Shown here: positions 31,492-37,400 of the stretch, in pieces | How the letters are laid out: every line of letters starts with the position of its first letter | Numbering within the stretch: position 1 is the stretch's first letter | From: Escherichia coli | Lineage (GTDB): Bacteria; Pseudomonadota; Gammaproteobacteria; Enterobacterales; Enterobacteriaceae | Reading direction: 5' to 3' (one strand) | NCBI RefSeq assembly: GCF_036507355.1 | Contig: NZ_AP027877.1 | DNA: 64,000 nucleotides | Position numbers: made by a program

Positions 31492-34400
31492 TAGGGTAAT
31501 ATTAAATCGGAACATTTACATCGCGGAATGTAAAATTTAAATAAAAAGGACTCTTCCATGAGCCAAAATTCCTGAAATCTTAAGGGTAAGATAAAAGGTC
31601 TTAATCAGAATGACACGTTTTATTAATAAATAAAGCTATTCTTTCATTGCTGTGTTTTTCTTTACAAAAGTAATCCTTGCTATGGGTGGTTAATCATGCG
31701 TTAATGGTGTTCTGGTTTGTTACAAATTTATCTGAAGCAGTCATTGTTATAATTTTATTATTTGTACCTCTTGAGATTTCCTTGTTGGTTTTTCTCTCTG
31801 ATATTTTTTTTCGGACCATTCTGCCCAAGGGCTAATTTCTTCAAAAGGTAATAATTATGTCTAACAAAATGACTGGTTTAGTGAAATGGTTTAACCCTGA
31901 AAAAGGTTTTGGTTTCATCACGCCGAAAGATGGCAGCAAAGATGTGTTTGTCCATTTCTCAGCAATTCAGAGCAACGATTTCAAAACATTAACTGAGAAT
32001 CAGGAAGTTGAATTTGGTATTGAGAACGGACCTAAAGGTCCTGCCGCTGTTCATGTAGTGGCGCTTTGAGGTAGACAATATTACAAACCATATTCACTTT
32101 AGATGCCCGTGTTGTCATGGTTCCCAGTATAGAACATCATCTTTTGATGTTTCTGACATGAATCCTTTCGGGGCAAAATGTATCTTTTGTAAATCAATGA
32201 TGATTACATTTGATAATATTTCACAATACTTAAATGCCAGCCGTCTGTCGTTGGATTTGAAAAAGTGAAAATGAAGGCTCCTTCGGGAGCTTTTTTGCTT
32301 GGTGTCTATTCGATGGATACTCACATACTACGGTAACATCATGAAAAAAATCATAGTTTTTTTTAACTCTGAACCAGCAGTGGTAGTGCCAGCGATGACT
32401 GGAGTTAACACCATCATGCGTGAATATCCAAATGGCGAAAAAACACACCTTACTGTAATGGCCGCAGGGTTTCCATCTCTGACCGGAGATCATAAAGTCA
32501 TTTATGTAGCCGCGGATCGACATGTTACTTCAGAAGAAATTCTGGAAGCAGCAATAAGGCTCTTGAGTTGATTTGATGCTATTGCATTGATAATTCAGGA
32601 AAATTCTCTTTGTCTGTTTGTGTAAAATTTAGACTATCGTATGTTGATTATTGCGATGTTTCATCTTATCTTTTACACGTTTGCACCATATAATCGACTT
32701 ACTGTGTAACTGGAAAGTCATAACAGACTAAAAGAGGAAATGATGAATATTGAAAACTTAAAAACAAAAGCAGAAGCAGATATTTCTGAATATATAACAA
32801 AAAAATTATTGAACTTAAGAAAAAGACCGGGAAAGAAGTTACCAGTATTCAGTTTACCGCACGGGAAAAAATGACGGGTCTTGAAAGCTATGATGTCAAG
32901 ATTAATTTAATCTGATGTATTCAATAATAAAATTTATCCATAAACCTCGTTTTTACGGGGTTTTGTTATATTTGAATGGTTCCGAATATCTAAATCACAA
33001 TTGTTGATGATTTTTATTAAACCAATGCAGTCCGGCTCAGGAGTGAGAGAAGCCGGACGTTATGGTTTAGCGTGGTAAGATCTGTGTAGTTTTCTGGATG
33101 CTTTCAGTAAATAGTAATGAATCATCAAAGGTATAGTAATATCTTTTTTGTTCGTGGATATTTGTAACCCACCGAAAAACTCCTGCTTTAGCAAGGTTTC
33201 TTCTGTATTCCTGAAATGTGATCTCTCTGGATTTCAGCTTATTAGAGGTCGTTTCTATAAGATGCCTATCCTTTGAAAATTTGACAGACACAATGTTTTT
33301 TAGGCCCTTTAATAACACTGTATTATCATTTTTTAATACAATATGAACATTCTCTGTGGCTAAATAGTAAATGTAATGTGAGACATTGTGACGTTTTAGC
33401 TCAGAATAAAACCATTGATAGTTTAAATCGTTTCGAACTTTATCAAATATTTGTTTAAAAATGACTACCTGATCCATAGATAAACCTTCCATGTGATATG
33501 AGGGGGCGTAGTCTGCACGATTATCTAAATTGCTTCAATCTGGTCTGACCTGTTTTCTGAGCAATTCAGTAATGTCACTCTTTTCTTTGTTTGCTTCAGA
33601 AGAAACTCTTTTTTCTGAGCACAGTCTCCGGCGGCAGGCTTCAATGACCCAGGCTGAGAAATTCCCGGACCCTTTTTGCTCAAGAGCGATGTTAATTTGT
33701 TCAATCATTTGGTTAGGAAAGCGGATGTTGCGGGTTGTTGTTCTGCGGGTTCTGTTCTTCGTTGACATGAGGTTGCCCCGTATTCAGTGTCGCTGATTTG
33801 TATTGTCTGAAGTTGTTTTTACGTTAAGTTGATGCAGATCAATTAATACGATACCTGCGTCATAATTGATTATTTGACGTGGTTTGATGGCCTCCACGCA
33901 CGTTGTGATATGTAGATGATAATCATTATCACTTTACGGGTCCTTTCCGGTGATCCGACAGGTTACGGGGCGGCGACCTCGCGGGTTTTCGCTATTTATG
34001 AAAATTTTCCGGTTTAAGGTGTTTCCGTTCTTCTTCGTCGTAACTTAATGTTTTTATTTAAAATACCCCCTGAAAAGAAAGGAAACGACAGGTGCTGAAA
34101 GCGAGCTTTTTGGCCTCTGTCGTTTCCTTTCTCTGTTTTTGTCCGTGGAATGAGCAATGGAAGTCAACAAAAAGCAGCTGGCTGACATTTTCGGTGCGAG
34201 TATCCGTACCATTCAGAACTGGCAGGAACAGGGAATGCCCGTTCTGCGAGGCGGTGGCAAGGGTAATGAGGTGCTTTATGACTCTGCCGCCGTTATAAGA
34301 TGGTATGCCGAAAGGGATGCTGAAATTGAGAACGAAAAGCTGCGCCGGGAAGTTGAAGAACTGCGGCAGGCCAGCGAGACAGATCTCCAGCCAGGGACTA

Positions 34401-37400
34401 TTGAGTACGAACGCCATCGACTTACGCGTGCGCAGGCCGACGCACAGGAGCTGAAAAATGCCAGAGACTCCGCTGAAGTGGTGGAAACCGCATTCTGTAC
34501 TTTCGTGCTGTCGCGGATCGCAGGTGAAATTGCCAGTATTCTCGACGGGATCCCCCTGTCGGTGCAGCGGCGTTTTCCGGAACTGGAAAACCGACATGTT
34601 GATTTCCTGAAACGGGATATCATCAAAGCCATGAACAAAGCAGCCGCGCTGGATGAACTGATACCGGGGTTGCTGAGTGAATATATCGAACAGTCAGGTT
34701 AACAGGCTGCGGCATTTTGTCCGCGCCGGGCTTCGCTCACTGTTCAGGCCGGAGCCACAGACCGCCGTTGAATGGGCGGATGCTAATTACTATCTCCCGA
34801 AAGAATCCGCATACCAGGAAGGGCGCTGGGAAACACTGCCCTTTCAGCGGGCCATCATGAATGCGATGGGCAGCGACTACATCCGTGAGGTGAATGTGGT
34901 GAAGTCTGCCCGTGTTGGTTATTCCAAAATGCTGCTGGGTGTTTACCGGAGTCGGAAGTTGCCGGACATTGCAGATGAAGGCGCATTACAGAAATGGAGG
35001 TCTGTTCTACCGTTCCTCAAGAGATGGCTATGGTTTTGAGGAAGACTGGGCAGAAGTTTATACCTCGAAAAATCTTCCACCAGAAAGCTACCCAGTCGGT
35101 GCACCAATCCCGTGGCCATCAGATACCGTTCCGTCTGGTTATGCCCTGATGCAGGGGCAGACTTTTGACAAATCTGCTTACCCGAAACTTGCAGCCGCTT
35201 ATCCGTCAGGCGTGATCCCTGATATGCGTGGCTGGACGATTAAGGGCAAACCTGCCAGTGGTCGGGCCGTATTGTCTCAGGAACAGGACGGCATTAAATC
35301 GCACACCCACAGCGCCAGCGCATCCAGTACGGATTTGGGGACGAAAACCACATCGTCGTTTGATTACGGCACTAAATCCACGAATAACACCGGGGCGCAT
35401 ACCCATAGTGTTAGCGGTACGGCTGCTTCAGCCGGTGCACATACCCATTCGATAACATTTGTTTCAGGTGGCACCAAAGGTGCTCCGGGAAGTGGATCAC
35501 CTGATTATTCTAAATACAGTGTTAACACTTCTTCTGCAGGCGCTCATACGCACTCTGTATCGGGTACTGCTGCAAGCGCAGGTGCACACGCACATACTGT
35601 AGGTATTGGTGCTCATACGCACTCTGTTTCGATTGGCTCACATGGACACACCATCACCGTTAACGCTGCGGGTAACGCGGAAAACACCGTCAAAAACATC
35701 GCATTTAACTACATTGTGAGGCTTGCATAATGGCATTCAGAATGAGTGAACAACCACGGACCATAAAAATTTATAATCTGCTGGCCGGAACTAATGAATT
35801 TATTGGTGAAGGTGATGCATATATTCCGCCTCATACAGGTCTGCCAGCAAACAGTACCGATATTGCACCGCCAGATATTCCGGCAGGCTTCGTGGCTGTT
35901 TTCAACAGTGATGAGGCATCGTGGCATCTCGTTGAAGACCATCGGGGTAAAACGGTTTATGACGTAGCGTCAGGGGACGCGTTATTTATTTCTGAACTCG
36001 GTCCGTTACCGGAAAATGTTACCTGGTTATCGCCGGAAGGGGAGTTTCAGAAGTGGAACGGCACAGCCTGGGTGAAAGATGCAGAAGCAGAAAAACTGTT
36101 CCGGATCCGAGAGGCGGAAGAAACAAAAAACAGCCTGATGCAGGTAGCCAGTGAGCATATTGCGCCACTTCAGGATGCTGTGGATCTGGAAATCGCAACG
36201 GAGGAAGAAATCTCGTTGCTGGAAGCATGGAAAAAGTATCGGGTATTGCTGAACCGTGTTGATACGTCAACTGCACAGGATATTGAATGGCCAGCACTGC
36301 CGTAGGGTAAAACATATAAATTCTATAATTAGATGTATCTTTCCATTTACGGCAAGGAAGGGGGCTTGGAAGACGTAAAGCATCTCACACCGAGATTATT
36401 TTTTATATGTCAGGTGTCTGAAGTTTTGCTTTGGCTCTTAAAATGGTTTGCCGCGAGGTTTTGAATTCCCGGGCAATGGCACTTATACTTACACCTGACT
36501 TAATTCGTTCGAATACCGCCTGTTTCTGTTCTTCATTTAACACAGGTGGTCGACCAAAACGTTTCCCTGCGCCGCGGGCTCTTACTATCCCGGAATGAGT
36601 GCGTTCAAGTAAAAGGTCTCGTTCAAATTCAGCGACTGCTGAAATTACTTGCATCATCATTTTTCCTGTTGGACTGGTCAGGTCAATGCCCCCCAATGCT
36701 AAGCAATGCACTCTGATACCTGTTTCGGTCAGTTGTTCCACTGTTTTCCTGATATCCATTGCATTACAACCAAGGCGATCCAGTTTTGTCACAATCAATT
36801 GATCACCACATTTCAGGCGAGCAAGCAACCGGTTAAAACCAGGACGCTCACTGGTTGCTGCTGAGCCGCTAATGTGTTCTTCGATTATTTGCTGAGGTTT
36901 GATTTTAAAACCTGCACTTTCGATTTCCCGGCGTTGATTTTCGGTGGTCTGATCCAGCGTTGATATCCGACAGTAAGCAAAAATTCGAGACATAGTGAGA
37001 CTCTATACGAAATTGGTGTTCATATCATAATGCATCTCAGAAAATAATTATGATTATTTTTGTGCATATTTGTATGTACACGTTCGAAAATAAACGAATG
37101 CGTATGCAACCCCGTAATTTTGGTGAGACCCAAAATCGATTTTGTGAAAAATGGCTTTAACTCGGTTTGTTTTTCGAGTTCCGGGCGGACTCAAGGAAGA
37201 AGAATAGTGTTGCGTGTTATTTTAACCAGATTTCAAGTTGTTTGGTCGTGGAAAAGTGGAGCAAAATGTTGTTAAAGTGGAAAAATGATAAAAAAGTAAG
37301 TTTATTATATTACATTTTACCATTTAAATTTTGGTTGTCTTTAAGAACTGATATCGCTGTTTGTAATAATTCTTTGTTATCCAGCCATGATTTTTTCTTT

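Follow-up and report, generated by a model that had tools for sequence, protein, structure and literature searches.

What does a prophage keep when its packaging genes decay, and could the packaging site that remains still be used by another phage? The question is raised by a locus near the middle of a 64,000-nucleotide stretch of Escherichia coli DNA (hereafter the window; RefSeq assembly GCF_036507355.1, contig NZ_AP027877.1), in which a bacteriophage lambda-type cos site and nohA, a gene for a homolog of the small terminase subunit Nu1, are followed by a truncated gene for the large terminase subunit gpA. Sequence comparison makes it very probable that a cryptic lambdoid prophage of the Qin type, inserted in ydfJ, has its packaging end here; it would have lost about 20 kb, stepwise, by illegitimate deletion at the level of microhomology, and its cos and nohA remain intact in sequence. 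An initial annotation had read the region as a packaging remnant, which stands; it had missed that the remnant is the annotated Qin/nohA locus.

A Qin-type cryptic prophage in ydfJ

The insertion in ydfJ and the gene order ydfO-ynfO-nohA-stf'-tfaQ-pinQ-ydfK-ydfJ' are collinear with the Qin prophage of E. coli K-12 and with RefSeq annotations elsewhere. K-12 Qin lies at the same ydfJ site with the gene order ydfO, ynfO, nohA (b1548), stfQ, tfaQ, pinQ, ydfK, ydfJ, ydfI, and is 99.5% identical in nucleotide sequence over window positions 23593-34685 (~11 kb), with Nu1 identical through residue 176. It differs from the window in that its deletion starts earlier, so that gene A is lost entirely together with the final 5 codons of Nu1, and also ends earlier, leaving ~954 bp of stf compared with 787 bp in the window. 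Since the K-12 endpoints are earlier on both sides, neither allele is derivable from the other. K-12 Qin also has a different cosB haplotype, at 6 positions, and has kept the dicA-dicB-intQ region that the window has lost.

The DLP12 prophage of K-12 shows a similar arrangement, with a lambda-type cos, the 181-amino-acid nohD, an A pseudogene (aaaD) and then tail-fibre assembly (tfaD). DLP12 shares with the window the bases T53, G73 and C102 of cosB (lambda numbering) and the Nu1 substitutions A75T and L132I, and the two are 98.1% identical in nucleotide sequence over 33606-34945. Nevertheless, DLP12 is a separate prophage at another chromosomal site, has several differing positions left of cosN, carries Nu1 R70L in place of the window's K48R, and has a slightly longer A stump (309 bp annotated) that joins tfaD and not the 3' end of stf. 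The kind of object described here is already known and annotated, in the form of the cos/nohA remnants of Qin and DLP12, and the window departs from well-known strains only in its deletion endpoints.

The cos site and nohA

The lambda reference, NC_001416, was circularised before local alignment to the window. Lambda 48141-48502 and 1-979 aligned to window positions 33606-34945 as a single block of 98.6% identity, with 19 substitutions and one 1-base gap (identity to lambda/DE3 was 99.0% over query positions 1-1246). This block spans the cos junction, cos being circularly joined as it is in a prophage. There is no mismatch or indel in lambda 48167-48502 or in lambda bp 1-52, and cosQ, cosN and I2 are all lambda-identical. 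The parts of the site and the gene that follows it are as follows.

33606..34945, plus strand: lambda-homology block from local alignment (lambda 48141-48502 and 1-979)
33938..33944, plus strand: cosQ (GGGTCCT), the 7-bp packaging-termination element, lambda-identical and at the lambda spacing to cosN
33966..33981, plus strand: cosN, the 12-nt cohesive-end sequence (33968-33979) with 2 flanking bp per side, lambda-identical
33985..34017, plus strand: I2, the spacer from cosN to cosB (lambda bp 18-50), lambda-identical
34017..34032, plus strand: R3, Nu1 binding site (lambda bp 50-65), with C53T, the sole change within the R elements
34033..34075, no strand: I1 region, the integration host factor (IHF) site between R3 and R2, with A73G and T102C
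34076..34091, minus strand: R2, inverted Nu1 binding site, exact core match, lambda-identical
34117..34132, plus strand: R1, Nu1 binding site, exact core match, lambda-identical
34157..34702, plus strand: nohA, small terminase of 181 amino acids (Pfam Phage_Nu1, PF07471, positions 1-164 of 164, E 2e-101)

The exact lambda coordinates of cosQ are reported to be 48473-48479 (Wieczorek & Feiss 2001). The cohesive-end sequence GGGCGGCGACCT occupies 33968-33979, and the 21-mer that encloses it is found once in the window, compared with an expectation of 0 from 100 shuffles. There are three copies of the R-core motif CGTTTCCKTTCT, at 34020 (plus strand, 1 mismatch), 34076 (minus strand) and 34121 (plus strand), which is the lambda layout of R3, inverted R2 and R1. 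We followed published definitions for cosN (PMC9026076), for cosQ as a conserved 7-bp site (PMC4669245) and for I2, which has been shown to be essential (PMC4856287); since I2 and its flank are lambda-identical without an indel, the spacing from cosN to R3 is preserved. Judged by sequence, all parts of a lambda-type cos are therefore present: cosN, cosQ, I2 with its spacing, and three R elements (R2 inverted) in which bp 56, 58 and 59 are of the lambda type. The site had been proposed at the outset to hold a lambda-type cosN and cosB-like sequence, and this is borne out by the complete R3, R2 and R1. The module shares with that of lambda the cosQ, cosN and I2 elements, the R3-I1-R2-R1 order and orientation, and gpA residues 1-90; it differs in four small cosB differences, in lacking gpA residues 91-641 and the head and tail genes, and in being a single chromosomal copy that does not lie within a concatemer. 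The window contains only one cos, and none occurs in the 30 kb downstream of it.

The product of nohA is, as first annotated, a full-length Nu1 homolog: its 181 amino acids cover the profile end to end and differ from lambda Nu1 in 3 substitutions only (K48R, A75T and L132I; 98.3% identity), residues 1-47 and 133-181 being lambda-identical. The sequence accordingly includes both the winged helix-turn-helix at the N-terminus and the C-terminal gpA-binding region of a small terminase (TerS). It is identical to RefSeq NohA WP_000453611.1, encoded in the Qin locus (L001) of the enterotoxigenic E. coli (ETEC) strain P15-25, and RefSeq labels the gene nohA in hundreds of genomes. A75T and L132I are present in DLP12 NohD, which is functional in lambda. 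Lambda expresses nu1 from its late promoter. A homolog of Q lies upstream of nohA in the window (about 27253-28035), and no sigma-70-like promoter was found in 33500-35200, a span that includes the region upstream of nohA.

The lambda-homologous block also contains, at 33824-33847 and ~120 bp left of cosN, the 24-bp FNR-binding sequence TTAAGTTGATGCAGATCAATTAAT, which is a target of FNR upstream of nohA/nohB in K-12 by ChIP-chip and electrophoretic mobility-shift assay (PMC1802558).

The deletion junction between A and stf

Downstream of nohA, the lambda-like sequence stops abruptly and gives way to a tail-fibre cassette.

34677..34945, plus strand: 5' stump of gene A, codons 1-90, identical to lambda gpA residues 1-90; the open reading frame (ORF) continues out of frame and stops at 35039
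34944..34945, no strand: deletion junction with 2-bp TA microhomology; the lambda match ends at 34945 and the tail-fibre match begins at 34944
34946..35730, plus strand: 3' stump of stf, 261 codons (last 787 bp of the gene), with Collar (PF07484) and Phage_fiber repeats
35730..36305, plus strand: tfaQ, tail-fibre assembly (PF02413), 94.8% amino acid identity to lambda Tfa
36403..36993, minus strand: pinQ, serine DNA invertase with Resolvase and HTH_7 domains, called pinQ in annotated relatives

The gpA ORF overlaps nohA, and 29 unrelated, out-of-frame residues follow residue 90. The initial annotation had placed the end of the gpA match after about 91 residues near 34950, which is correct to within a few bases (90 residues, 34945) when the junction is aligned to A and to stf. 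The stump covers only positions 3-47 of 247 in the GpA_ATPase profile of Pfam; with residues 91-641 missing it is a pseudogene stump and no large terminase (TerL). It retains gpA Y46 and the P-loop 76-KSARVGYS-83, without Walker B/E179, the nuclease domain or the portal-binding end, and since these are absent the stump is enzymatically dead.

On either side of the junction the window runs collinearly with Qin of ETEC P15-25 (L001), at 99.8% and 99.4% identity, and it lacks positions 3447-5691 of that locus, or 2245 bp. The native sequence at the break reads …GGGTGTTTA followed by TGCC… in A and …CTTCTATA followed by CCGGAG… in stf, from which it follows that the join uses the 2-bp TA microhomology. 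Although gpA had been described as fused to the tail-fibre region, and A is indeed joined to the 3' end of stf, the two frames differ, so that the junction is a deletion scar and does not encode a fusion protein.

The stf stump corresponds to residues 347-607 of the ETEC stf fragment, with 99.6% identity, and its identity to lambda orf-314 is 67.6%. Beyond pinQ come ydfK and then ydfJ, a host gene. In lambda coordinates, the left arm stops at bp 979 and the right arm restarts near bp 21,100-21,245, and ~20 kb of head and tail genes are gone. This agrees with the loss of the head and most tail genes noted at the outset: what is left downstream is the tail-fibre C-terminus (261 amino acids), tfaQ and pinQ, and then host ydfJ.

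A graded series of Qin deletions

A query containing nohA was used to collect Qin variants at the same chromosomal site in finished E. coli genomes. Together with the window they form a series, listed here with what remains to the left and to the right of each deletion.

LZYWN_4: left, full A, W and truncated portal; right, tfaQ
EC26: left, A' of 1233 bp with capsid and FI fragments; right, tail stump
ETEC P15-25: left, A' of 1482 bp; right, stf' of 1824 bp
Window: left, A' of 269 bp; right, stf' of 787 bp
PigCaeca_2: left, A' of about 174 bp; right, stf' of about 789 bp
K-12: left, Nu1 cut after residue 176; right, stf' of 954 bp

Given these graded endpoints, the description of the module as frozen mid-decay is apt. 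The comparison indicates that decay of the locus is stepwise and lineage-specific, and an ETEC-like intermediate could be the ancestor of both the K-12 and the window alleles. The latest step in the lineage of the window would then be the loss of 2245 bp relative to the form that persists in pig ETEC strains.

The status of the junction itself has to be considered, since it could in principle be an assembly or chimera artefact that joins separate prophage fragments. Sequences resembling A and stf recur within E. coli genomes (at a median of 2-4 places each), and the exact junction occurs in 0 of 5,426 complete E. coli genomes, 0 GTDB species representatives and 0 metagenome contigs; exact-protein look-ups of the A' read-through ORF and of the stf' ORF also returned no match. 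However, the junction was found in one other public assembly, GCA_016660925.1, traced via the exact YdfJ protein, where an identical junction lies in a collinear stretch of 7.7 kb with 22 single-nucleotide polymorphisms (SNPs). Its presence in an independent assembly means that the junction is real and inherited and not a misassembly. Moreover, both flanks are Qin-syntenic in many genomes, and analogous junctions occur in finished genomes. An artefact can be given a probability close to nil, and we treat the junction as an inherited deletion in what follows.

Between the window and this second copy of the junction (L020), 21 of the 22 SNPs are grouped in a 570-bp patch of the stf 3' end and tfaQ (35613-36182), a pattern that resembles gene conversion by a paralogous tail-fibre cassette. 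A further mosaic pattern is seen in cosB (34020-34154), where the window and ETEC Qin match DLP12 at five sites and K-12 Qin, LZYWN_4, EC26 and PigCaeca_2 differ; the adjacent nu1 SNPs (34294-34351) are of the Qin type despite the DLP12-like cosB. The pattern points to recombination, either among paralogous cos regions or with phages, and on these sequences gene conversion is evidently frequent at the Qin locus.

A right-hand breakpoint shared with PigCaeca_2

The deletions of the window (34944-34945) and of PigCaeca_2 (L015 1544-1551) end on the right at one and the same point in stf, …CTA^TACCGGAG…, but on the left at different points in A (lambda 979 and about 884, respectively). The PigCaeca_2 junction is private to that strain (1 of 5,426 genomes), and the flanking haplotypes differ, that of the window being ETEC-like and that of PigCaeca_2 EC26-like. 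Either the PigCaeca_2 allele descends from a junction like that of the window, through loss of another 95 bp (TT microhomology) and subsequent gene conversion of the flanks, or the breakpoint is a weak hotspot.

Three possible causes of a coincident breakpoint were considered and rejected. The breakpoint is not a common mosaic boundary, as 1,834 of 1,846 matching genomes carry at least 80% of a 240-bp segment centred on it as one continuous match. A hairpin hotspot is not indicated by DNA folding at the site (-6.9 kcal/mol, z = -0.45 relative to shuffles). Deletion by a Pin invertase at a pix/gix-like site was also discarded, with no Din-family site (TTCN4AAACCNNGGTTTN4GAA, up to 3 mismatches) in the window and a breakpoint sequence unlike one.

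Terminase recognition of the remnant cos

From cosN to the start codon of nu1 the window differs from lambda at five places: C53T, A73G, T102C, a missing G near bp 138, and A188G. In lambda, R3 comprises bp 50-65, Nu1 contacts the segment bp 55-63, and bp 56, 58 and 59 have demonstrated roles (PMC9026076, PMC4669245). C53T is at the edge of R3 and outside the contact segment, which is unchanged in the window, including bp 56, 58 and 59; A188G lies outside R1, 3 nt upstream of the nu1 start. The set compared at these positions consisted of lambda itself, 3 prophages (K-12 Qin, K-12 DLP12 and ETEC Qin) and 8 phage genomes (DE3, HK630, an Stx1a-converting phage and five wild lambda-like phages). 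Each of the wild lambda-like phages in this set has G73 and C102, T53, G73 and C102 occur together in phage 2H10 (classified by the International Committee on Taxonomy of Viruses), in the Stx1a-converting phage and in DLP12, and T53 is also shared by ETEC Qin. All of the cosB differences except A188G are shared with deposited phage genomes, and each one is found either in such lambda-like phages or in DLP12. Near bp 138 (window 34104/34105), lambda NC_001416 reads GCGAGGCTTTTT, whereas DE3, HK630 and all the wild phages and prophages compared read GCGAGCTTTTT. Only the lambda reference record carries the extra G, so that what looks like the loss of 1 bp in the window reflects an oddity of that record.

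It could nonetheless be argued that cos is intact only in appearance, and that C53T, A73G, T102C or the missing G abolish terminase recognition, leaving the region inert even in trans. All four differences are seen in the alignment, C53 is conserved in lambda R1, R2 and R3, the R3 core of the window is matched only if 1 mismatch is allowed, and R3 is the most critical of the R elements (PMC9026076). This explanation is nevertheless quite unlikely in view of the phages that carry the same bases and the unchanged contact segment, and because the cos-nu1 region of DLP12, which has T53, G73 and C102 as well, gives viable lambda recombinants (PMC3945230). In that study, by De Paepe et al., recombinants between lambda and DLP12 with the DLP12 nu1 were active and viable, and half of the crossovers were directly beside cos, which the authors explain by cuts that terminase makes, possibly in both partners, and that stimulate exchange (PMC3945230). 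In the work of Poteete et al., too, lambda recombined predominantly at the cos patch of DLP12 (PMC545071).

Changes known to abolish terminase recognition, in cosN or in the Nu1 sites, would have spoken against a usable site; the check revealed none, cosN, cosQ and I2 being identical to lambda and bp 56, 58 and 59 unchanged. There is no sequence argument against recognition of the site by a terminase of lambda specificity, which is plausible, and cleavage of this cos by such a terminase is likewise plausible. Several points weigh against this reading of the locus. C53T alters a base conserved across the R1, R2 and R3 cores of lambda, though it lies beyond the contact segment defined by nuclear magnetic resonance; K48R, found also in K-12 NohA, is not among the changes in the DLP12 protein that works in lambda; terminase may reach a single-copy chromosomal cos inefficiently in vivo; and the two-step deletion history is a reconstruction from extant alleles.

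Predicted fate of cos in trans

From its gene content, the remnant cannot by itself package any DNA, as it has no functional TerL and no head or capsid genes. A terminase would have to come from a superinfecting or co-resident phage of lambda specificity. The identity, anatomy, junction and population context of the locus are observed; cleavage of cos and its consequences we infer from the packaging biology of lambda (PMC4669245, PMC9026076). IHF would bend I1, and a Nu1 dimer would load onto R3 and R2, with R3, R2 and R1 bound. gpA would then nick cosN at 33968/33979 and terminase would be retained on the cosB side. If a prohead docked, translocation would proceed rightward through nohA, stf', tfaQ, pinQ, ydfJ and ydfI into further host genes. 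The 30 kb that follow in the window contain no further cosQ-cosN, so that normal termination would be impossible and the Qin remnant could not be packaged as a unit. The initial idea that the locus could be packaged in trans should therefore be narrowed to, at most, rightward initiation into host DNA.

The more probable outcome of cleavage may be a chromosomal double-strand break, unprotected on the cosQ side, that would stimulate recombination with the infecting phage. Marker rescue or donation of alleles to the phage would then be expected, with cos-nu1 on one arm and stf-tfa on the other. At most, rare particles with one cohesive end might form, resembling the docL class. docL particles, or in situ packaging from the cos of an unexcised prophage, were reportedly described by Sternberg and Weisberg in 1975 and by Sternberg in 1986. 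The likeness to docL lies in the start at a chromosomal cos, the direction from Nu1 to A into host DNA and the lack of a terminal cos; the difference is that docL arises from an induced, replicating, excision-defective full prophage with its own terminase, whereas the window remnant does not replicate and would need terminase in trans.

Retention and significance

It is possible to imagine that cos-nohA-A' has been kept for a function in the host, as a decoy or abortive-infection site at which incoming terminase would break the chromosome, as a source of terminase-titrating Nu1 and gpA N-terminus, or as an origin of lateral transduction for the chromosome on the ydfJ side. cos is kept in all 6 Qin deletion variants examined and full nohA in 5 of the 6, and the same set has been kept independently in DLP12. 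The A' stump also retains the N-terminal region of gpA, which is reported to bind Nu1 in the domain mapping of Frackman and Feiss. Yet the variants were found with a query that contained nohA, which makes their retention an ascertainment effect, the Nu1 C-terminus has already been lost in K-12, nohA has no sigma-70-like promoter upstream, and the left breakpoints are scattered, as neutral decay predicts. Two elements of the IS3 insertion sequence (IS) family also sit where K-12 Qin has part of its immunity and integrase genes.

In favour of retention, phage-inducible chromosomal islands (PICIs) show that packaging can be redirected by a cos and a TerS-binding protein (PMC6739421, PMC9026076). 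PICIs such as EcCICFT073, with its cos-rpp arrangement, resemble the window in being chromosomal, non-autonomous elements with a near-lambda cosQ-cosN that need a helper terminase (PMC6739421, PMC9026076). In contrast, they lack a lambda-type cosB, rewire the helper TerS through Rpp, excise, replicate and are sized for packaging. The window has a canonical cosB and a bona fide Nu1 beside cos, its intQ/dic region is missing, and no integrase, excision, replication or rpp-like function was identified in it; it is not a cos hijacker of the PICI type. Retention for a host function is on balance very unlikely. Much the same holds for a broader formulation, in which stf contains a sequence-directed deletion hotspot or cos-nohA-A' is kept to interfere with or exploit incoming lambda-specificity terminases, as a decoy cos or a lateral transduction origin for the genes on the ydfJ side; this too we consider very unlikely. 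Decay of a Qin-type prophage by stepwise deletion remains the preferred explanation.

As such, the locus is a textbook case of prophage decay, with little importance beyond bookkeeping, and experiments have already examined how lambda recombines with the cos region of DLP12 and with Qin stf-tfa. However, its cos has no known inactivating change, and wherever a phage of lambda specificity is met the locus could serve as a site of chromosome breakage and pass on cos-nu1 and stf-tfa alleles. The graded endpoints of Qin deletions across E. coli may provide a natural record of prophage erosion, and the coinciding right-hand breakpoints are worth a look in studies of deletion mechanisms.

Neighbouring elements

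The two IS3-family elements (orfA and orfB each) are at the remnant's left end, at 19428-20690 and about 22350-23592, with a further ~1.4 kb (20989-22350) between them. The K-12 segment dicC/dicA/dicF/dicB/ydfE/intQ (K-12 1646919-1652599) is absent here, with 298 bp of the ynfP/intQ end left.

On the right, ydfI is interrupted, relative to five other assemblies, by a 768-bp insertion at 41081-41848 with a 9-bp target duplication, which is IS1-sized. The contig of GCA_016660925.1 with the shared A'/stf' junction stops within a few bases of this insertion point, which suggests that it has the same ydfI insertion. Even with the best-matching of the 5,426 complete E. coli genomes, the host backbone at 38300-63000 shares only about 98.5-98.8% identity, and it includes a many-copy repeat (36-38 places per record among the top hits). 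These features suggest an IS-rich lineage that lies outside the complete-genome collection.

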